The position numbers and the translations under genes were made by a program. A stretch of 64,000 nucleotides of DNA from a virus (lineage: Duplodnaviria; Heunggongvirae; Uroviricota; Caudoviricetes): positions 30,052 through 94,051 of IMG/VR virus record IMGVR_UViG_3300017691_000005; one strand, 5' to 3'. Below are positions 11,981 through 45,348 of this stretch, piece by piece (position 1 is the stretch's first letter; every line of letters begins with the position of its first letter). Below the pieces are notes generated by a model. It was given only the letters and a program-made list of their open reading frames with translations, was not told the origin of the DNA and searched no databases.

Positions 11981-12012
11981 GGGGGCGGACTATTTTGGTC
12001 CGCCCCTATGTC
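11981..12012 (+). terminator. hairpin terminator-like element
   Basis: GGGGGCGGAC-TATTTTG-GTCCGCCCC inverted repeat after the stop at 11970. Confidence 0.4.
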
Positions 12013-12030
12013 ATTATATAAAGGAGATAA

Positions 12031-12264
12031 ATGGATGCAACAGACAAAGAGAATCTAACAGTTACATTAGACGCTCTTATTGATCGAGTAGTAAAGTTAA
12101 AAGGTTTTGAAGGTTATGAAGATAACGATATTGTTGATTTCATGTATGTTTTAGATGAGGCAAAGTTTATTGTTGCCGGTATTGTCTATAGCAATGGAAT
12201 TTCTATATGTGATCATGAAAAAGACCCTATGACTGGTGAATGTTTAAATGACGAGGACGACTAA
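12031..12264 (+). CDS. hypothetical protein
   Basis: 77 aa, RBS AAGGAGATAAATG. Confidence 0.4.
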   Translation: MDATDKENLTVTLDALIDRVVKLKGFEGYEDNDIVDFMYVLDEAKFIVAGIVYSNGISICDHEKDPMTGECLNDEDD

Positions 12265-12597: not shown

Positions 12598-15500
12598 ATG
12601 AGCGGATTTGCAAGTCTACATTGTCATACTGAACGTTCACCTATTGACTCAGTTGCTCGTATTGAAGAATATCTAGAGCGTGCTGTTGAAGTCGGTGTGC
12701 AGTCAGTAGCCACCACAGAGCATGGTCGCCTCAGCGGTTTCCGTGATAACCAGGCGGCTCAAGAAAAGTATGGAATGAAAGTCATCCAAGGGATTGAGAC
12801 ATACTTTTCATCTACTGATCGATTTGATCGTAGGAGCAGTAAGCAGAGGGATGACGGTTCGTCTGTCTACAACCACCTAATTTTGCTCGCAATGAATAAT
12901 AAAGGTCTGCGGAATCTCAACAAGATGAATGAGATTGCATGGACAGAAGGTTTTTATAACCAGGCACGTATTGACAAAGAACTATTAGAAAAATATGGAG
13001 ATGACATTATTGTCCTCTCTGGCTGTATGTCAGGTGTTATGGCCGAAGGTATTCTCAATGATGATATGCAAAAGGCTTACGATTGGGCCGGGTGGTTCAA
13101 GGATAAGTTTGAAGACAGGTTCTTTGTAGAACTACAGTCTGAGAATGATATTGCATTGAATACAGCCCTACTCAAAGTCGCTGACGATCTATCCATTAAG
13201 TCTGTCCTTACAGAAGATAGTCACATGGTCCGTCCATCAGATCGGTGGATTGAAGAGGCATTCCTAGTCCTATCGACTAAGCCTAACGCTGATAAGTCAG
13301 TCAAGTGGGAAAGTCTTCCCAAAGACATGCCAATGCTTGAGAAGTTTAACGCTCTTTATCCCGGTCGAAAGATGACCTTTGAGCATCTTGACCTATTCAT
13401 GGCTGGCCGGGAGCACAGGGAGAACAAACTCAAAGCACAAGGTATTGACCGTCCCGAACTATTTGATAATACGGTAAACATTGCCAATCGTGTAGAAGGA
13501 TATGATAATCCTACAAATCTTGATCTACTGCCCCGACCTAAGGCAGAAGATCCTGTAATTAAGTTCAGGCAGATGTGCCGACGTGGTATGAAGCAAAAAG
13601 GGCTTGCTGGTGATCCAGTGGCTGAGGCTCGTCTAAAGCATGAACTAAATGTCATCGAGTCTAAGAACCTCTCGTCATACCACCTCATCGTGGCAGACAT
13701 GATGAACTGGATTACCGCTCAGGGTATGCAGAAGGGGTTTGGTCGCGGTAGTGCTGGTGGCTCTCTAGCCAACTATGTTAGTAACATTACAGAGATCAAT
13801 CCACTACCCCATGACCTACTGTTTGAACGGTATCTAGACCCTTCTCGTGATGACCCCGCTGACATTGATTCTGATACATCAGACCAGGCGGCGGTGCTTG
13901 GTTATCTAACTCGTATGTATGAGCATGTCGCCAAGATTACTACTGTCAATTACTTTAAAGAGAAAAGCAGCCTGAAGGATGCTTGCAGTATTATCAAGGT
14001 TCCTTTTGCGGAGGCTAATAAAGCACTAAAGAACATTGAGTCGTTTGATGAGTACCTAGAAGATCCTGCTCTATCTGACTTTAGGTCAAGGTATCCTGAC
14101 GTGTTCAAGATTGCGAATGAGTTCAATGGACGTATTCGCGGTTATGGAATGCACGCATCGGGTGTTGTGGTGTCAAATAAAGACTTCACTGATTTTATGC
14201 CAATTGAGTCACGCCCGGCAGGCAAAGATGAGCGAGTGCCTGTTGTTGCTTACGATGGTAATGAAGTAGCAGAAATTGGCGCCTACAAGATTGACGTTCT
14301 TGGGGTTAAGACCCTCGCGGTTATTAACGACTGTATCAATCTTGTTGCTAAACGTCATGGTGTCAATGTCATCATGCGTGAAATTCCACTAGATGACGAT
14401 GCAGTATTTCAGAGTATCTCTGAGGGCTATACTCGTGGACTGTTTCAGGCTGAACAGTCGGCATCTACGAAACTCATCGTAGAGATGGGGGTTGATAACT
14501 TCAATGATCTTGTTGTGTCGAATGCTCTAGTGAGAACTGGTGCTTATAAGGCATTTGGTAAGGAGTACATTGCTCGTAAGCGTGGTAAGCGTAAGGTTAA
14601 GAGTATCCACCCAATCTATGATGCAATTACTAAAGACACTCTAGGTCTGCCTCTATATCAGGAAACCTGGATGAAGATTATGAACGAGTTCGCCGGTATG
14701 AACATGGGTGATGTTAATAAAGTTCGTAAACTAACCGCTAAGAAGAAGTCAGCAGAGGAACTAGCACCTTACCGTGAGAAGTTCATTTCTGGTGTGGTCG
14801 CTAATGCAGATATGGAAACAGCAGAATTCCTTTGGGAATGGCTACTCAAGACCTCTGAGTATCTGTTTAACAAGTCGCACGCTGTGGCTTATTCGATGCT
14901 GACAAATGCAACCGCATGGCTGAAGTATCACTACCCCCTTGAGTACATGCTTTCACTTCTACGCAATGAAGAAGACAAGGACGCTATTACTGACTACTTC
15001 ATTGAGGCAAAGCGTCTAGGTATTAAAATTCTTCTTCCTCACGTCAACAAGTCAAAGGTTCACCACGAGATTGAGGGTGATTCAATTCGAATTGGTCTTT
15101 CAAGCATCAAGTACATCTCCGATCTAACTGCGCCAAAAGTTTTGCGCTATGCTCCATACAAGAACTATCAGGATCTCTACAACAAGGTTATGGAGAAGGG
15201 TAACGGTCTTAATGTCCGCTTGCTTCAAGGCTTGAATGCTATTGGAGCGGCATCATTTGATGATAACCCTCCCAAGGGTAATGAAAGAGATAATCTTTAT
15301 GAGTATCTTCAAATCCCTGCGTTCAACTCTTCAGAATTGCTACCCAAGATTCGTTATCAGATGGATGCCATTGAAGATATTAGTGAAGATGGTATTTACA
15401 AGATTCTTGCTATGGTTCGTGGAGTTAAGAACGGTGACGGGTGGACCCGTGTGGATCTTGTAGATGAGAGCGGTTCCATTGGTCTGTTTACCAACGCTCC

Positions 15501-27667: not shown

Positions 27668-27816
27668 CTTCAAGGTACGGATGCTATTCGGTTATCGAAT
27701 TTGGATCGAGTTGAGGGAGTTCGAATCTCTCTGCCCGCACTTCATGCGGGTATGGTGTAATGGCAGCACGCTAAAAACCCGAATGCAATAACATGACCTT
27801 GATACCTGGAAGTACA
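27666..27816 (+). ncRNA. candidate YrlA-like Y RNA with circularly permuted tRNA-like domain (element d)
   Basis: outer helix GTACTTCAAGGTA (27666-78) / TACCTGGAAGTAC (27804-16); order T-arm GGGAG-TTCGAAT-CTCTC, acceptor-3' TGCCCGC, loop ACTTCAT, acceptor-5' GCGGGTA, TG, D-arm GTG-TAATGGCAG-CAC; motifs TATTCGG/CCCGAAT and CAATAACATGACC; about 320 nt upstream of the Ro60 gene. Confidence 0.5.
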
Positions 27817-27895
27817 ATCCGAAAGTTGGCGACGGAGACGGTCTTGAAAACCGTTGAGCGTAAAAGCCTTGTGGGTTCGACCCCCACTGCTTCCG
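27808..27895 (+). tRNA. tRNA-Ser (TGA), class II
   Basis: acceptor GGAAGTA/TGCTTCC, D-stem TCCG/CGGA, anticodon arm ACGGT-CTTGAAA-ACCGT, long variable arm, T-arm GTGGG-TTCGACC-CCCAC. Confidence 0.55.
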
Positions 27896-27921: not shown

Positions 27922-28137
27922 ATGTCTGAAGTATTATGGACAGATAAACAGCAATTAGAAGATCTTGTAGGTCTTATTACAAAAGCCGTGATGGACGGTG
28001 CGTTTATTGGATACTCTGAAGTCACAGAGCCTAAACTCCTAAAAGTAATTTCAGATACTTCTATGGCTGTGACAAAACTTTACACAGATTTTCTCAACCG
28101 AGAAGCAAACACTATTTCCCAGAAAGGGGACGAATAA
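27922..28137 (+). CDS. hypothetical protein
   Basis: 71 aa, RBS AGGAAAATATG; stop overlaps the start of the Ro60 gene. Confidence 0.45.
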   Translation: MSEVLWTDKQQLEDLVGLITKAVMDGAFIGYSEVTEPKLLKVISDTSMAVTKLYTDFLNREANTISQKGDE

Positions 28138-29789
28138 TGAGTAACTCACTTATTAAGAACACCGCTGCTACTAAGGCACGCAAGAACACAACTCCTCAGA
28201 CCGTTAAGGCTGATGAGGCTCAGGTCAAGAACAACGCGGGTGGATTTACATTCGTTGTTAGTGATCGTGACCGTCTAGAGCGATTCCTGATTCTAGGTAC
28301 CGATGGAGGTACTTATTACGTATCAGAGAAGAAGATTACTGACCAGAATATTGCATTCCTTCGTAATCTTCTATCCCAAGACGAGCGTCTAGTCGTTGAT
28401 GCTGCCGTTGATGTTTCTGTTAATGGACGTGCATACAAGAACAGCCCTGCAATTTTTGCTATCGCTCTTGCTCTAACCGAGGGCAAGGATAAGGAATATG
28501 CACGAGAGGCATTTAACAAGGTAGTTCGTACTGGAACTCATCTATTTGAGGCTGTTGAATATATTAATAACCTTGGTGGTTGGGGGCGCGCAAAGCGTAA
28601 GGCTGTTGCGGGTTGGTACGAGTCTAAGGATGCTGACTCTCAGGCATACCAGACTGTCAAGTACCGTCAGCGAAATGGGTGGACTCACAAGGATGTCCTA
28701 CGTCTGAGCCACGCAAAGCCTGATCCTTACGTTGCTAATTTCGCCCTAGGTAAGAAGGTTGTCTCTGATGACAAGCCTCAGGTAATTTCTGGTTTTGAGG
28801 CTGCACAGTCGGCCGGGTCCGAGAAGGAAGTAATTTCTGTTCTTGAGACTTATAAGAATCTTCCTTGGGAGGCTATTCCTACCGAGTTCCTTAAGTCAGA
28901 TAAGGTTTGGAAGACTCTTTTCTACAACAACCAACTAAACGGTCAAGCGCTTGTTCGTAATATTGTCCGTCTTTCTCGACTAAATGCCTTCAATGATATG
29001 CAGTTTGCTGCTGACTATGCCAAGCGACTAACTGACGAAGAGATGATTAAGAAGACACGTCTTCACCCAATCAACTATCTAAATGCAGTTGTCGTTTATG
29101 AACAGGGTCAGATTGAGCGTCAGGGCAATTACGGTTACTACGGAGGATCTCGTAAGAAGGATTGGCAGACCAGTTCAGTCATCATTGATGCTCTCAATGA
29201 AGGTTTCCATTCTTCATTCAAGTCTGTTGAGCCTGCCGGTAAGCGCACTCTAGAAGCAATTGATGTTTCAGGTTCCATGAGTTCGCCTGCAATTGGTCTT
29301 GACCTTTCATGTGCTCAGGTATCTGCTGCAATTGCTATGACTATTGCTCGTACCGAGCCTGCTCACATTATCCGTGGTTTTACTACCGGAAGTGGAAGCC
29401 GTTATAACTGGCGAGGCACAGCAGAACTTACTGATCTTGGTATTTCTGCTAAGACTTCTCTTTCTTCCGCAATGAGTAAGGTTCGGAAGAATAACTTCGG
29501 TGGTACTGATTGTGCTATGCCGATGATTTGGGCTCTTGAGAACAAGGTTGAGGTAGATACGTTTGTTGTCGTCACAGACAACGAGACATGGGCCGGGAGT
29601 ATTCACCCTCACCAGGCTCTAAAGAAGTACCGCGATCAAATGGGTATTGATGCACGTCTTGCGGTTCTAGGTGTCGCATCCACTGAGTTCACTATCGCTG
29701 ATCCTAAGGATAAGGGAATGATGGATTTTGTTGGGTTTGACTCCAATGCACCTCGCGTTCTAGCAGATTTCTCTGCTGGCCGTCTGTAA
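28137..29789 (+). CDS. rsr: Ro60/Rsr ortholog (TROVE domain plus vWA domain with MIDAS)
   Basis: 550 aa; hallmark FLILGTDGGTYYVSEKK (cf. GSEGGTYY of Ro/Rsr), SPAIFAIALAL; C-terminal vWA with MIDAS DVSGSMS at about residue 378, as in Ro60. Confidence 0.8.
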   Translation: MSNSLIKNTAATKARKNTTPQTVKADEAQVKNNAGGFTFVVSDRDRLERFLILGTDGGTYYVSEKKITDQNIAFLRNLLSQDERLVVDAAVDVSVNGRAYKNSPAIFAIALALTEGKDKEYAREAFNKVVRTGTHLFEAVEYINNLGGWGRAKRKAVAGWYESKDADSQAYQTVKYRQRNGWTHKDVLRLSHAKPDPYVANFALGKKVVSDDKPQVISGFEAAQSAGSEKEVISVLETYKNLPWEAIPTEFLKSDKVWKTLFYNNQLNGQALVRNIVRLSRLNAFNDMQFAADYAKRLTDEEMIKKTRLHPINYLNAVVVYEQGQIERQGNYGYYGGSRKKDWQTSSVIIDALNEGFHSSFKSVEPAGKRTLEAIDVSGSMSSPAIGLDLSCAQVSAAIAMTIARTEPAHIIRGFTTGSGSRYNWRGTAELTDLGISAKTSLSSAMSKVRKNNFGGTDCAMPMIWALENKVEVDTFVVVTDNETWAGSIHPHQALKKYRDQMGIDARLAVLGVASTEFTIADPKDKGMMDFVGFDSNAPRVLADFSAGRL

Positions 29790-29830: not shown

Positions 29831-30370
29831 TTGGATGACATGACTAATACTGGTTATATTCGCACGCCTAAAATTGGTCACAGCGTAAAAGTAAACGACA
29901 CTTATACTGGCGATTTTGCAATTATTGGTGAAGTGCTTACTGTTGCGGCTGTAGGATCTCAAGGTGAAGTATCCGTTAAAGAATTGTTTGTTAGTAAGAC
30001 AAATCAAAACAAGCAGTACCCTCAGTATTATAGACAGAATCCTATTCTACTTTCTTATGAGTATAATCTTATTGAGTATCCAACCATCAAAGATAAGTTT
30101 GATGCGGACGTTAACGTTGGGGATTATGTTGTAGTAGCCCCGGCGGTACATGGTGGTCACATTGAGCGTGGTGTCATTAAGACAACTTCTATTAACAACC
30201 AATATGGCAGAGATAATCAGGCATTTACTTTGGAAGTTGACACTGAGACACGGTATTGGGAGGCGGAAGATCGTAAATTTTCGGTTCCTAAAAAAACAAT
30301 TAGGCATTATGGTTCCTCGGCGGGTCTATTGCTTCTGACCAAAGCAGTTGACAGGTTTGACGCTCCCTGA
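29831..30370 (+). CDS. hypothetical protein
   Basis: 179 aa ORF. Confidence 0.45.
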   Translation: MDDMTNTGYIRTPKIGHSVKVNDTYTGDFAIIGEVLTVAAVGSQGEVSVKELFVSKTNQNKQYPQYYRQNPILLSYEYNLIEYPTIKDKFDADVNVGDYVVVAPAVHGGHIERGVIKTTSINNQYGRDNQAFTLEVDTETRYWEAEDRKFSVPKKTIRHYGSSAGLLLLTKAVDRFDAP

Positions 30371-31190: not shown

Positions 31191-31208
31191 TTCTCTATGG
31201 TGTCTGTG

Positions 31209-31279
31209 TTGTAATGGAAGCATGAGAGATTGTGTCCCTCTCGGAGACGGATCGTTACCGTCCAGACACACAGCGGCCA
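31209..31279 (+). tRNA. tRNA-His (GTG) (alternative reading Thr-TGT); non-canonical T-loop ATCGTTA
   Basis: perfect acceptor GTGTCTG/CAGACAC with an extra G at -1 (His-like), anticodon arm AGAGA-TTGTGTC-CCTCT (A31.C39), T-arm GACGG-ATCGTTA-CCGTC. Confidence 0.4.
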
Positions 31280-31339
31280 AGTGATGTATTAGGTACCGTG
31301 ATATCCGGTGGCTTGGTAATTGAAACCCTAATACTTTTA

Positions 31340-31445
31340 TATCGGGTCGATTGAATTCGTTTATCTTCGCCAATGATTGAAGGCTAGTGGTTCGACTCCA
31401 CGGCACAGGGATGGTTCCCATCGAATTCTTACACATATCTGATTT
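31340..31445 (+). ncRNA. inter-tRNA structured element (e), Y-RNA-like family member with T-arm-like hairpin
   Basis: GAATTCGTTTATC ... GTGG-TTCGACT-CCAC ... GGATGGTTCC ... CGAATTCTTACACATATC; GAATTCG/CGAATTC helix. Confidence 0.35.
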
Positions 31446-31447
31446 AT

Positions 31448-31519
31448 GGACTGTTAGCATAGATGGCAATGCGTTCGGTTGAAGCCCGAAAGAATAGGGA
31501 TCGTTACCCTGGCAGTCTA
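31448..31519 (+). tRNA. tRNA-Phe (GAA); non-canonical T-loop ATCGTTA
   Basis: acceptor GGACTGT/GCAGTCT, D-arm GCAT-AGATGGCA-ATGC, anticodon arm TTCGG-TTGAAGC-CCGAA, T-arm TAGGG-ATCGTTA-CCCTG. Confidence 0.55.
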
Positions 31520-31520
31520 C

Positions 31521-31560
31521 GTAACCCGGTTGAATGGCAGCCGGGTTTTTCTATGAGAGG
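31521..31560 (+). terminator. rho-independent terminator-like hairpin
   Basis: ACCCGG-TTGAATGGCAG-CCGGGT followed by TTTTT. Confidence 0.45.
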
Positions 31561-31568
31561 AGAGCCTA

Positions 31569-32447
31569 ATGTTCTGGCTCATTGTTTTTAGCGCTCTTGT
31601 AATTATTTTTCTTCTGGCTGTAGCAGCCGCTGTCATTACTAAATCCCCTGGCCCAAGGCTAGTAGCAGCACTAGTTCTAGTGATTGCACTAGTATTCACA
31701 GCATTTAATTCATTTACCACGGTTGGTGCTCGTAGCGTGGGTATTCAAACTGGATTTGGTAAGTACATGCAGACCCTTGATAATGGTTTCCACATCAAGG
31801 CGCCTTATTCCAGTGTTGAAGAGTTCAGCACTCAAGTTCAGTACCTTGACCTAAATGGTGAGGGTGATGCTGTTGCCGTGACATTCAAGGGCGGCGGCGG
31901 TGGTAATGTAAATGCTACGGTCCGCTGGCGTATCGATGCCAAGCAGGCTGAGAATCTTTGGAGTAAGTACCGTACATTTGAAGCGGTAAGGGATCAACTA
32001 GTGACTTCTTCTGCTAAGGATTCATTCCGAGTTGTTGTTGCCAACTACACTCCTAATGATGCTCGTAGTGGTGAGAACATTCGACCCATTACTGAGGCGG
32101 TAGTTGCTGACCTTTCCAAGAATCTCGCTAATGACGGTATTGTGATTGACTCTGTATCCATTTCTTCTCTTGGTCTAGATGCAAATAGTCAAGCAAGTCT
32201 TGACCGTATTGTTCAAGCCAATAATGATATTGAACGTGCTACCGCTGAACAGCAGAGGGCTCAGATTGATGCTGAGACTGCTCGTATCCGTCAGGAAACC
32301 GGCGCGCTCGCTCCTGAGGCTAATATTCGTTACTGCCTTGAACTGGTGAACAGTTGGGACGTTGCCAAGAATGGTAATCTTCCCGCGACATTTAACTGTG
32401 CGCTGACTGATCCTGCAAATATCACTCCCGTTCTCCCGGTACAGTGA
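31569..32447 (+). CDS. SPFH/band-7 (prohibitin/stomatin-like) membrane protein
   Basis: N-terminal TM helix, SPFH-type core, C-terminal coiled coil (AEQQRAQIDAETARIRQE). Confidence 0.65.
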   Translation: MFWLIVFSALVIIFLLAVAAAVITKSPGPRLVAALVLVIALVFTAFNSFTTVGARSVGIQTGFGKYMQTLDNGFHIKAPYSSVEEFSTQVQYLDLNGEGDAVAVTFKGGGGGNVNATVRWRIDAKQAENLWSKYRTFEAVRDQLVTSSAKDSFRVVVANYTPNDARSGENIRPITEAVVADLSKNLANDGIVIDSVSISSLGLDANSQASLDRIVQANNDIERATAEQQRAQIDAETARIRQETGALAPEANIRYCLELVNSWDVAKNGNLPATFNCALTDPANITPVLPVQ

Positions 32448-32548
32448 TGAAAGTATCAGCCACGATTTTTGGCGGCATAGTAATCGCAGTAGCAAGTTCA
32501 ATAGGCACTATCATGTATATAGGTAATAAAATGTTTGGACATTCCTGA
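32447..32548 (+). CDS. small hydrophobic membrane peptide (33 aa)
   Basis: MKVSATIFGGIVIAVASSIGTIMYIGNKMFGHS; TGATG overlap with the SPFH gene. Confidence 0.3.
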   Translation: MKVSATIFGGIVIAVASSIGTIMYIGNKMFGHS

Positions 32549-32709
32549 TGGCTATTGTCGAGTTTCAAGTACTCAAAACTTATACAGTTAATGGTCGAGT
32601 ATTTGAACATGGTCTCTATTCAGCCGATGATGAATGTGATCACAACGTTATCGGAGCAAATGGCGGCGGTAGGAAATGTACTAAATGCACCGGATGGTTC
32701 TGCTACTGA
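32548..32709 (+). CDS. small Zn-ribbon protein (53 aa)
   Basis: CDH...CTKCTGWFC; TGATG coupling. Confidence 0.3.
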   Translation: MAIVEFQVLKTYTVNGRVFEHGLYSADDECDHNVIGANGGGRKCTKCTGWFCY

Positions 32710-32734
32710 TTGACAAGTCCTGAGTAAGACTATA

Positions 32735-32803
32735 AACTGCTTACGCCCCTACTAGCGGATCTAGGTTGATGGCTACGAACCATTTCTCGGGAGTTCAACT
32801 CTC
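32735..32803 (+). tRNA. tRNA-Arg (ACG)
   Basis: perfect acceptor GCCCCTA/TAGGGGC, anticodon arm GATGG-CTACGAA-CCATT, T-arm GGGAG-TTCAACT-CTCCC. Confidence 0.55.
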
Positions 32804-32851
32804 CCTAGGGGCTCTTTTATAGTTTTAAAAGTACCGGCGTATAATCATTCC

Positions 32852-33007
32852 ATGAGGTACTTAGCACAAGTCATACTGGCGGTAGAGGTAGAAGCCTATC
32901 AAGTCAGTGATGCAAAAGAAGCAATAGAGGATTGTCTTAATATGGAGAATTGCGGAAGTCTTTCAGTGGTTGATCTAGAGATACAAGATATAGATGAACT
33001 TAAATGA
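32852..33007 (+). CDS. small acidic protein (51 aa)
   Basis: ORF MRYLAQVILAVEVEAYQVSD... Confidence 0.3.
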   Translation: MRYLAQVILAVEVEAYQVSDAKEAIEDCLNMENCGSLSVVDLEIQDIDELK

Positions 33008-33158
33008 ACTAAGCAATGTCCAGGTAGTTCAATGGTGTAATTCATGTAATGCTGACGAAGCGGTACATGTGATTGAAGTTGAACTAGATTGGGGTAAAGA
33101 GTCTTTGCAGATTTGTCACGGGTGCCTTAAAGAACTCAAGAAAAGAGGTTTGTTATGA
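32994..33158 (+). CDS. small Zn-ribbon protein (54 aa)
   Basis: CNSC...CHGC. Confidence 0.3.
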   Translation: MNLNELSNVQVVQWCNSCNADEAVHVIEVELDWGKESLQICHGCLKELKKRGLL

Positions 33159-33275
33159 ACGTGGGTACAATAGGTGCTATTTGCGGAATCGTAGCGCTGG
33201 TACTTGTGCTGGTCTTGGTTCTCTGATACAGTAGACATCACGTCCTGAGGATGACGTATTGAAAACTCCTCATAT

Positions 33276-33347
33276 GCCTTCGTGGTCCAATGGATACGAC
33301 AGAAGATTTCTACTCTTTTGATGGGAGTTCGATTCTCTCCGGGGGCG
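33276..33347 (+). tRNA. tRNA-Arg (TCT)
   Basis: acceptor GCCTTCG/CGGGGGC (two G-U), anticodon arm GAAGA-TTTCTAC-TCTTT, T-arm GGGAG-TTCGATT-CTCTC. Confidence 0.5.
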
Positions 33348-33392
33348 CGGGTTAGCAGTTGAAAAATACCGGCATCGCCAAAAACTGCGTAT

Positions 33393-33464
33393 GGACTCAT
33401 AGTGAAAAGGTTATCACAATCGCCTGTCGAGCGATTAGTGCGGGTTCGAGCCCCGCTGGGTTCG
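33393..33464 (+). tRNA. tRNA-Asp (GTC)
   Basis: acceptor GGACTCA/TGGGTTC, D-arm GTGA-AAAGGTTA-TCAC, anticodon arm ATCGC-CTGTCGA-GCGAT, T-arm GCGGG-TTCGAGC-CCCGC. Confidence 0.65.
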
Positions 33465-33579
33465 CGGTAACGCTGGCTGTGCAGCGGATACAATACTAGG
33501 ATATTCGCGTGAGAGAATCCTAGTGAAGAGAAGAGGGATGATTAATCACGCTCTACCCCTCGTAAATCACACAGCATAT

Positions 33580-33651
33580 GGGTCGTTCGTATAACGGTTA
33601 TTACTTGAGGCTCTTAACCTTAAAATCAGAGTTCGATTCTCTGGCGACCTA
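33580..33651 (+). tRNA. tRNA-Lys (CTT)
   Basis: acceptor GGGTCGT/GCGACCT, anticodon arm TGAGG-CTCTTAA-CCTTA, T-arm CAGAG-TTCGATT-CTCTG. Confidence 0.6.
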
Positions 33652-33797
33652 CGTAATAGCACAGCAGGGCAAGCGCTGAAAGACAAGTTCCGAGGGTACA
33701 GTTAAGATGGTCTCGCCCATTTGCCGGGGTGTAAAGAGACAACCTGAGAGGAATAATTGCTATTAACACTGCTATGATTTGCAAGTCGTAGCAGCAT

Positions 33798-33868
33798 GGG
33801 CTACAAGCATTAAGGTGATGCAACAGACTTTTAATCTGTGGAACAGGGATCGTTACCCTGGTGGCCTA
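33798..33868 (+). tRNA. tRNA-Lys (TTT); non-canonical T-loop ATCGTTA
   Basis: acceptor GGGCTAC/GTGGCCT, D-arm GCAT-TAAGGTG-ATGC, anticodon arm ACAGA-CTTTTAA-TCTGT, T-arm CAGGG-ATCGTTA-CCCTG. Confidence 0.55.
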
Positions 33869-33895
33869 CAATACACCTTCTAACAAGGGATTAAA

Positions 33896-34813: not shown

Positions 34814-34884
34814 GGCGTAGACAGCGGGATGCTGGGGCGTGACTGTAAATCACTACCATGAAGGTTCGAGTCCTTCCTGCGCTA
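34814..34884 (+). tRNA. tRNA-Tyr (GTA), short/atypical D and variable regions
   Basis: acceptor GGCGTAG/CTGCGCT, anticodon loop CTGTAAA on stem GTGA/TCAC, T-arm GAAGG-TTCGAGT-CCTTC. Confidence 0.45.
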
Positions 34885-35034: not shown

Positions 35035-35042
35035 CTTGCGGG

Positions 35043-35112
35043 GATGGAGAAATAGTGTCTCGCTAGGCTCATAACCTAGAGATCACCTGTTGCGAGTACA
35101 GGCCACGCTACC
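35043..35112 (+). pseudogene. tRNA-Met-like (CAT) element with encoded CCA but an unpairable acceptor stem (pseudo-tRNA or atypical)
   Basis: D-arm GAGA-AATAGTG-TCTC, anticodon arm CTAGG-CTCATAA-CCTAG, T-arm-like CCTGT-TGCGAGT-ACAGG, 3' end CCACGCT-A-CCA; the 5' segment GCGGGGA does not pair with the 3' acceptor strand. Confidence 0.3.
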
Positions 35113-35129
35113 AATTTGTAACTACAACG

Positions 35130-45250: not shown

Positions 45251-45329
45251 GGGGTAGACGGGTTATTCGACGTTGGTAAAGCCGTATACGGAACCACGAC
45301 GGACTAGGGTTCGACTCCCTACTACTCCA
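45251..45329 (+). other. tRNA-like gene (acceptor plus canonical T-arm) with non-canonical core containing the palindrome CCGTATACGG
   Basis: acceptor GGGGTAG/CTACTCC, T-arm TAGGG-TTCGACT-CCCTA; internal region forms a long hairpin instead of D/anticodon arms. Confidence 0.3.
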
Positions 45330-45348
45330 CTTTATAATTAAATACTAA

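Follow-up and report, generated by a model that had tools for sequence, protein, structure and literature searches.

The window analysed here is a stretch of 64,000 nucleotides from a virus of the class Caudoviricetes (IMG/VR record IMGVR_UViG_3300017691_000005, positions 30,052 to 94,051), which carries an array of tRNA genes. Three of these genes, for tRNA-His(GUG), tRNA-Phe(GAA) and tRNA-Lys(UUU), have the T-loop ATCGTTA, in which T54 and A58 are exchanged to A54 and U58. The T54/A58 pair is regarded as almost invariant and is a substrate or recognition element of TrmA, TrmI, TruB and T-loop tRNases. We read the three as real elongator tRNA genes with an alternative, internally compensated elbow core (probability of about 0.72); tRNA-Lys and tRNA-Phe are most likely to be functional, and tRNA-His is less certain to be so. 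In this core, the bases of the intraloop reverse-Hoogsteen pair T54/A58 are exchanged to A54/U58, position 60 carries A in place of a pyrimidine and A48 gives a purine–purine R15/A48 pair. As U55, C56, G57, the G53–C61 pair and G18G19 are retained, docking of the T-loop with the D-loop, and with it the L-shape, should still be possible, and the fold has probably been preserved. The pairing of A54 with U58, and the geometry it would have, we infer from the gene sequences.

ARAGORN calls all three genes with a 5 bp T-stem and the seven-nucleotide loop A54 U55 C56 G57 U58 U59 A60. The Rfam tRNA covariance model places ATCGTTA without gaps, column for column, on its consensus UUCgAaU with high posterior probability, and the minimum-free-energy (MFE) folds of all three are cloverleaves with an unpaired T-loop of seven nucleotides. 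The three methods concur on the exchange of T54 and A58 that the original prediction had described, and a T-arm shifted to canonical T54/A58 is ruled out, as none of them gave it. The enclosing T-stems (Table 1) are, as had been stated, different yet complementary; all end in GG/CC, so the G53–C61 closing pair is kept, and that of tRNA-Phe contains a U49–G65 wobble. The 17-mer AGGGATCGTTACCCTGG is indeed present in two exact copies, at 31496 (tRNA-Phe) and 33845 (tRNA-Lys). The heptamer ATCGTTA is not over-represented in the window (six matches versus 8.4 expected), and three of the six copies lie exactly in the T-loop register of tRNA genes. The D-loops (AAUGGAA in tRNA-His, AGAUGGCA in tRNA-Phe and UAAGGUG in tRNA-Lys) all contain G18G19; R15/A48 takes the form A15/A48 in tRNA-His and tRNA-Lys and G15/A48 in tRNA-Phe, and A60 is present in all three. 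All three genes lie on the plus strand; only the span given for tRNA-His (31209–31279) was nine bases off that in Table 1.

Against Rfam RF00005 the genes align over their full length with scores of 34.3 (His), 41.8 (Phe) and 42.8 bits (Lys), which is 10–30 bits lower than the other tRNAs of the window (19 of the canonical ones score 50–67 bits). The low tool scores that had been thought possible are present, but all three remain above the Rfam gathering score of 29 bits. By cloverleaf and score the three belong with the elongator tRNAs; they fall outside the canonical T54-Psi55-C56-R57-A58 type, with U55, C56 and G57 present and 54/58 exchanged. tRNA-His is the weakest of them, with U37, an A31/C39 mismatch and A73; U37 and the mismatch make its functionality doubtful. 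These defects, the lower scores, the tRNA-like remnants present in the window and the lack of GenBank annotation for the equivalent tRNA-Lys of Xanthomonas phage X1 would all suit decaying pseudogenes, or tRNA-like decoys outside translation, an explanation that we nevertheless consider very improbable. The stems are intact (in tRNA-His the acceptor, D and T stems), and differences between homologues are compensating. tRNA-Phe and tRNA-Lys have normal anticodon loops and none of the marks of a pseudogene, and the three variant genes are the only ones for their anticodons that ARAGORN finds in the window. Across the class of such tRNAs, identity elements are retained (G3:U70 and A73 in seven of seven variant tRNA-Ala; an encoded G-1 in 21 of 23 and C73 in 20 of 23 variant tRNA-His), the variants found elsewhere score 46–61 bits, above the gathering score, and the loop is conserved despite great sequence divergence. 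The identity elements and scores point indirectly to a functional class.

Covariation of positions 54 and 58

The pattern is general and goes beyond what had been noted for the window. Searching IMG/VR with GGGATCGTTACCCT yielded 119 loci, about half of which match through the T-arm of a tRNA gene that belongs to a tRNA array; at least 15 isotypes are represented. The control against selection bias was a search in which the identical stem encloses a canonical loop, GGGTTCGAATCCCT. Among the non-selected tRNAs of this sample A54 is found in 18 of 676–678 (2.7%; the lower total counts seven-nucleotide loops only), and all 18 have U58. In a pool of 1929 tRNAs with seven-nucleotide loops, mostly from viral contigs, positions 54/58 are U/A in 1737, A/U in 155, A/A in 19 (for example ATCGAAA and ATCGATA), G/G in eight and C/A in five, and G/C or C/G occurs in none. 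The double mutant is far commoner than any single mutant, which argues that the 54/58 pair itself is under selection. As G/C and C/G are missing while A/A and G/G occur, a plain Watson–Crick 54–58 pair is disfavoured and a pair of Hoogsteen type is indicated. The partner of 54 is taken to be 58 because position 59 is variable; it may be U, A, G or C while 58 is always U, and a Watson–Crick A54–U59 pair closing a tetraloop is excluded on the same ground.

Altogether, 343 distinct A54/U58 tRNAs of 19 isotypes were collected from 250 loci. They form 136–217 clusters at 70–80% identity outside the loop, and the A54/U58 loop thus persists across great divergence. Among the variant loops ATCGTTA is the most frequent (67 of the first 101), and G52G53/C61C62 is present in 99 of 101 variant tRNAs.

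Positions 60 and 48, on which the original prediction was silent, change together with 54/58. A60 is found in 143 of 174 A54 tRNAs, and U60, the base in 1477 of 1741 U54 tRNAs, never occurs with A54. A48 is present in 64 of 131 A54/U58 tRNAs versus 256 of 1722 canonical ones (odds ratio 5.5, p = 3e-18), a trend that is kept within Asp, His, Gly, Ala, Ile, Glu, Phe and Lys. A46 and U13–A22 are also enriched with the variant, in a sample partly biased by the tRNA-Lys family described below. In one orthologous tRNA-Lys gene the loop reads ATCGTTA in Xanthomonas phage X1 and ATCGATA in the related phage BUDD; since the two differ only at position 58, the A/A and A/U states appear to interconvert, and a passage from U/A to A/U by way of A/A is plausible.

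The alternative-core tRNA-Lys family and the history of the three genes

The window tRNA-Lys belongs to an alternative-core family, which we define by A8A9, the D-arm GCWU-UAAGGUG-AWGC (with U14 and G21), the variable loop NGAA (with A48) and A60. The window gene has AAGCATTAAGGTGATGC, the D-arm GCAU-UAAGGUG-AUGC, the variable loop GGAA and ATCGTTA. The second reverse-Hoogsteen pair of tRNA, U8/A14, is also exchanged in the family, a further change that had gone unremarked; tRNA-His and tRNA-Phe of the window, with U8 and A14, lie outside it. When variant Lys(UUU) genes were collected with a pattern of anticodon plus T-loop, 79 of the 95 combined A8A9 with U14. A D-arm identical to that of the window gene is combined with an A54 loop in Curtobacterium phage Yappy, Xanthomonas phage X1 and many IMG/VR contigs, while in Xanthomonas phage BUDD and Synechococcus phage BUCT-ZZ01 A8A9 and the D-loop UAAGGUG are retained and the T-loops are ATCGATA and ATCGTTC, respectively. 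The family is thus spread over phages of Actinomycetota, Pseudomonadota and Cyanobacteriota hosts; the same D-arm with ATCGTTA is also present in chromosomal tRNA arrays of Chryseolinea, Chryseosolibacter and Ohtaekwangia.

Selection by the D-arm alone retrieves genes for Lys(UUU), Lys(CUU) and His(GUG), all with A48 and nearly all with A60, in which 54/58 are U/A, A/U, A/A or G/G; the G54/G58 loops (GTCAGTA and GTCGGTA) recur in the D-arm-selected members from IMG/VR (loci L396 onwards). The tRNA-His(GUG) genes of this set have the same 17-nucleotide D-arm as the Lys genes, and a D-arm and core common to three anticodons indicate that the spread of one core between isotypes occurs. The exchange of U8/A14 can also occur alone, as in the tRNA-Thr(UGU) of phage T5 (locus L395, 2668–2742), in which A8 and U14 (D-loop TGTTGGTG) accompany a T-loop of canonical sequence. 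In X1 (locus L242, OQ427096) the alternative-core tRNA-Lys(UUU) at 12001–12074 is unannotated in the GenBank record, in which more than 30 other tRNAs are annotated; a GOLLD RNA (179 bits) also lies within the X1 tRNA array, at 13298–13727.

The variant state of the three window genes would have originated after the split of this lineage from its Streptomyces-phage relatives. The nearest cultured relatives are ∼130 kb Streptomyces phages of the Stanwilliamsviridae, with ∼66% nucleotide identity in the band-7 gene only, and no deposited phage is closer to the window than these Stanwilliamsviridae-like relatives. No A54 is found among the ∼365 tRNAs of Sham (30), Gilson (31) and 13 further band-7 relatives (304), and the His, Phe and Lys(UUU) genes of these 15 phages are canonical, which rules out inheritance of the variant from the phage's family. 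A metagenome scan for closer relatives gave one 2.2 kb contig (90% amino-acid identity in the band-7 protein) that stops before any Lys gene and is without the His–Phe side, and an exact-protein look-up gave no match.

An unusual D-arm (UG-UUGU-AAUGG..-GCAU) and A73 are common to the window tRNA-His and a tRNA-His with canonical loop in one relative (locus L278), and the two are therefore taken to be orthologues; the L278 gene, however, has A37. By this alignment tRNA-His is a gene that switched in place, from the loop TTCGATT to ATCGTTA and from the variable loop CAGAG to CGGA. tRNA-Phe is nearest to the Gilson-type tRNA-Phe, with eight of the ten T-stem bases kept (TACGG/CCGTG versus TAGGG/CCCTG), among them the ancestral U49, A50, U64 and G65. 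It too was probably switched in place, possibly by point changes or by a 13-nucleotide conversion tract (positions 51–63) from tRNA-Lys. tRNA-Lys(UUU) occupies a syntenic slot (band-7 ... Lys(CUU)-Lys(UUU) ... Met-Met) that in the relatives holds a quite different canonical gene, which suggests replacement of the resident gene. The resident tRNA-Lys would have been replaced by, or remodelled into, a member of the cross-phylum A8/U14/G21 family.

From the two-copy 17-mer the original prediction had suggested that one variant T-arm was duplicated and spread. Such copying among the three genes, by duplication or gene conversion, would explain the identity of all three loops, U59 included, and a single conversion tract over positions 51–63 would account at once for the five differences between the window tRNA-Phe and that of Gilson; the common core of Lys(UUU), Lys(CUU) and His(GUG) genes across phages also agrees with it. 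In that form the suggestion is not borne out, however: the T-stem of tRNA-His is unrelated to those of tRNA-Phe and tRNA-Lys (only GG-loop-CC is shared), and its body is orthologous to a canonical tRNA-His. tRNA-Phe still has its ancestral stem bases, and tRNA-Lys comes from a widespread family that already has this arm in unrelated phages. The identical loop is merely the commonest of its class, and loop sharing within a genome is barely above background (23 of 71, versus 23% between genomes), a signal too weak for a general homogenization of loops within genomes. We therefore regard copying within the genome as unlikely.

Several points weigh against the reading of the three genes as elongator tRNAs with a compensated core. 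tRNA-His may be decaying, given U37, the A31/C39 mismatch and a score of 34 bits. The D-arm of tRNA-Lys can alternatively be drawn with U14–G21 and A15–U20 pairs instead of A8/U14. The swapped trans Watson–Crick/Hoogsteen pair is not strictly isosteric with the original, and the co-changing set is a tendency rather than a rule, with A48 in about half and A60 in 80% of the variants. Furthermore, all counts given here depend on ARAGORN calls in loci fetched by sequence patterns, only the GGGTTCGAATCCCT control set and the non-selected genes of the other sets are unbiased, and related contigs within the counts are not independent.

The tRNA array and other tRNA-like elements of the window

The features of the array are collected in Table 1. 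The G+C content of the window is 42%. Besides the 24 genes with TTCRANN loops and the three variants, one tRNA-Met(CAU) (35037–35113) has the T-loop TGCGAGT, in which G55 replaces U55; its CCA is encoded, its acceptor stem is imperfect and its Rfam score is 28.5 bits. The loop UGCGA is also present in Met and Cys tRNAs of a relative (locus L284), and about 15 further phage tRNAs have a loop of the UGC type, which makes this a second T-loop variant that recurs.

Table 1. Coordinates of the tRNA array, the three variant tRNA genes and their T-arms, and two protein-coding features within the array.
Feature	Position	Strand	Evidence	Details
tRNA array	24572–45430	+	ARAGORN	28 tRNA genes, all on the plus strand, with small open reading frames (ORFs) between them; 24 with canonical TTCRANN loops
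tRNA-His(GUG), A54/U58 T-loop	31200–31271	+	ARAGORN, Rfam, MFE	G-1 at 31199, A48 at 31245, A54 at 31251, U58 at 31255, A60 at 31257, A73 at 31270
T-arm of tRNA-His	31246–31262	+		GACGG-ATCGTTA-CCGTC; loop 31251–31257
tRNA-Phe(GAA), A54/U58 T-loop	31448–31520	+	ARAGORN, Rfam, MFE	D-stem GCAU/AUGC, variable loop AGAA
T-arm of tRNA-Phe	31495–31511	+		TAGGG-ATCGTTA-CCCTG; loop 31500–31506; A48 at 31494
tRNA-Lys(UUU), alternative-core family	33798–33869	+	ARAGORN, Rfam, relatives	A8 at 33805, A9, U14 at 33811, G21 at 33817, variable loop GGAA, A48 at 33843, A54/U58/A60
T-arm of tRNA-Lys	33844–33860	+		CAGGG-ATCGTTA-CCCTG; loop 33849–33855
Ro60-like ORF	28137–29789			TROVE and vWA_Ro60 domains; inside the array
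Band-7 gene	31569–32447			inside the array

A tRNA-like gene of class II (27808–27894), a short way upstream of the Ro60-like ORF, has the anticodon loop CTTGAAA (UGA, Ser-like) and the T-arm GTGGG-TTCGACC-CCCAC; it is not called by ARAGORN, and its only Rfam match is to tRNA-Sec, below threshold (36.4 bits). Two remnants, at 31380–31410 (T-arm GTGG-TTCGACT-CCAC) and 32735–32810 (GCCCCTA...GGGAG-TTCAACT-CTCCC-TAGGGGC, with an ACG anticodon-like loop), are called by neither ARAGORN nor Rfam, and a weak Rfam tRNA match at 34814–34884 (28.1 bits, just below threshold) has no ARAGORN call. Between tRNA-Leu(CAA) and tRNA-Leu(UAA), an Rfam tmRNA match at 45251–45332 scores 42.9 bits (threshold 47); in Sham and Gilson, both relatives, tmRNA genes are annotated inside the arrays.

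Retention of the variant state and relation to known tRNAs

The A54/U58 state appears to be very rare in cellular genomes. A scan for CTTTTAA-N12-13-GGATCGTTACC over 185,579 bacterial and archaeal species, with one genome each, gave 34 matches, of which 22 are real Lys(UUU) genes: 14 in Chryseolinea-type arrays, five in bacteria of the Candidate Phyla Radiation (CPR) and three in other arrays. The same Lys(UUU) pattern is found at 119 or more loci in 2.9 million viral contigs. The arrays of Chryseolinea, Chryseosolibacter and Ohtaekwangia and some CPR bacteria rule out exclusivity to phages, and in a few CPR bacteria a lone variant tRNA-Lys(UUU) stands beside housekeeping genes such as polA. 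In Chryseolinea serpens DSM 24574 (locus L263, 4965–7079) a tRNA-Asn (ATCGTGC) and a tRNA-Lys (ATCGTTA) are flanked by an HTH_3 gene on one side and an RNA ligase gene (PF09414) on the other, an arrangement that two related Chryseolinea loci share and that may be a tRNA replacement or repair module. The ligase adjoins variant tRNAs in only three closely related Chryseolinea loci, and no RNA ligase or polynucleotide kinase was found near the variant tRNAs of the window in the ten ORFs scanned (26.8–43.4 kb).

Among unselected tRNAs of phage arrays roughly 3–4% are A54/U58, chiefly Asp, His, Phe, Ile, Ala and Lys; in one such set the rate is 4.2% (59 of 1415). By isotype it reaches 23% in Asp, 13–14% in His, Phe and Ile(GAU) and 10% in Ala, and no variant occurs among the 219 class II, 67 Pro and 113 Arg tRNAs of this set. 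The same isotypes lead in the Lys-selected sample, and as the leading isotypes recur between samples, the His, Phe and Lys genes of the window form a typical trio. The number of variants per array is overdispersed, with none in 23 of the 32 control arrays and six in one of them. In one locus (IMGVR_UViG_3300005095_000172) the variant state dominates, with 10 of 19 tRNAs (His, Trp, Gln, Gly, Ile, Glu, Asp, Thr and Arg) being A54/U58.

A tRNA with A54 receives no m5U54 from TrmA or TrmFO, m1A58 cannot be formed by TrmI since position 58 is U, and recognition by TruB may be altered. The change in T-loop modification that the original prediction had raised is borne out to this extent, the loss of both modification sites following directly from the sequence. 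From sequence and established enzymology it also follows that A54/U58 tRNAs lose the U54–U55 step cut by known T-loop tRNases. Under the proposed mechanism the alternative state would be a stable second solution recurring in phage tRNA arrays, and different explanations may be offered for why it is kept. That it confers an advantage in conflict with the host, or independence from host enzymes, we place close to, though below, an even chance; some advantage is favoured by the excess in phages, by the concentration of variants in certain genomes and by the occurrence of the Lys family in phages of several host phyla. Retention for something other than such an advantage or near-neutrality seems rather improbable.

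A near-neutral alternative optimum, without specific function, falls somewhat further short of even odds. Here phage tRNAs, which evolve fast, would sometimes drift under weak constraint from U54/A58 through A54/A58 to A54/U58, from where a return needs two or three changes. The variants are indeed a scattered minority within arrays, the intermediate A54/A58 exists (the 19 cases above, and the X1–BUDD difference at position 58), close relatives of the window phage do without the variant, and the lone tRNA-Lys(UUU) beside polA in CPR bacteria appears compatible with ordinary translation. Near-neutrality sits poorly, however, with the very strong viral over cellular enrichment, the overdispersed counts per genome, the recurrence of the same few isotypes in three independent samples and the presence of one alternative-core Lys family in phages of three host phyla.

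A more specific form of the advantage would be escape from host T-loop readers: A54 would remove the U54–U55 step, and U58 and A60 would restore the fold. This idea is compatible with the structural explanation, and we hold it to be doubtful. Lys, His, Asp and Asn tRNAs are classic nuclease targets, and all four are among the favoured isotypes. The idea would also account for the at least 119 viral loci versus 22 genes in the cellular genomes, most of them in tRNA arrays, for the clustering of variants by genome described above and for the RNA ligase gene that adjoins the variant tRNA-Asn and tRNA-Lys of Chryseolinea serpens. Against it, variants make up only three of the 28 tRNAs of the window, which would give no rescue from a nuclease cutting most tRNAs; no T-loop nuclease is known from the host of the window phage, and the isotype bias could be structural, as class II tRNAs have none in 219. 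The Schlafen nuclease CbCash, which type III CRISPR activates, cleaves the UUC motif on the 5′ side of U55; a single mutation of either U54 or U55 is enough to prevent this, and the authors left open whether phage tRNAs are targets (PMC13462974). CdiA-CT E479 cuts the T-loop between T and pseudouridine (PMC9086364), so both enzymes act at the step that A54 removes. Natural A54 tRNAs are ready substrates for the question of whether phage tRNAs escape T-loop cleavage by Cash.

Further still, A8/U14/G21, U13–A22 with A46, R15/A48, A54/U58 and A60 might together constitute a co-adapted core poor in modification sites, which would fold without s4U8, m7G46, acp3U47, m5U54 and m1A58 and be unseen by host nucleases or enzymes that read the T-loop or elbow. 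We put this forward as an unlikely but consequential possibility: such a core would make tRNAs portable between phages of different phyla and usable as counter-defence, and tRNA-His, tRNA-Phe and tRNA-Lys of the window would be three instances of it, two of them newly converted in this lineage.

Whatever keeps the state, its recurrence indicates that a T-loop can be built in a second workable way and that what selection retains is the pair rather than the bases. There is also an effect on annotation, since the variant genes score 10–30 bits lower with the Rfam model and the tRNA-Lys of X1 is missing from its GenBank record. The variants resemble canonical elongator tRNAs in their cloverleaf, seven-nucleotide anticodon loop with U33, 5 bp T-stem, G53–C61, U55-C56-R57 and G18G19, and differ from them at positions 54 (A for U), 58 (U for A), 60 and 48 (A for Y at both), and in tRNA-Lys also at 8 (A for U), 14 (U for A) and 21 (G for A). 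The classical phage tRNA sets offer no precedent, as all 23 ARAGORN tRNAs of T5 are canonical at 54/58. The tRNA-Lys of T5 is said to act against PARIS as a phage tRNA resisting a host anticodon nuclease. Phage tRNAs that resist host anticodon nucleases through changes in the anticodon loop have been described (PMC11555353), in a paper that does not mention the T-loop, T-arm, D-loop or elbow. The variants described here are similar in being copies that differ from those of the host at nuclease-read positions, and tRNA-Lys(UUU) is prominent in both; in contrast, the changes lie in the T-loop and core instead of the anticodon loop.

The closest likeness is to eukaryotic tRNAs. In eukaryotic tRNAAla(AGC), R15/A48, A54/A58 and a purine at position 60 always occur together, a coupling reported by Westhof and colleagues to be absent from bacteria and archaea (PMC7566577), and the eukaryotic initiator tRNAMet also has A54/A58 (PMC7912444). 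The phage variants share with both types A54, a purine (A60) at position 60 and the retained U55, C56, G53–C61 and G18G19, and with tRNAAla(AGC) the purine–purine R15/A48 that changes together with position 54. They stand outside the eukaryotic A54/A58 type in having U58, the pair being exchanged rather than widened to purine–purine. The carriers also differ (His, Phe, Lys, Asp, Ile and others in phages, and not the initiator or Ala(AGC)), and the argument from the Pol III B-box that is made for the eukaryotic type does not apply to phage genes. We found no description of A54/U58 or A8/U14 tRNAs in the literature, with subscription journals outside the coverage. With these variants, the coupling of 15/48, 54/58 and 60 seen in eukaryotic tRNAAla is extended to phages.

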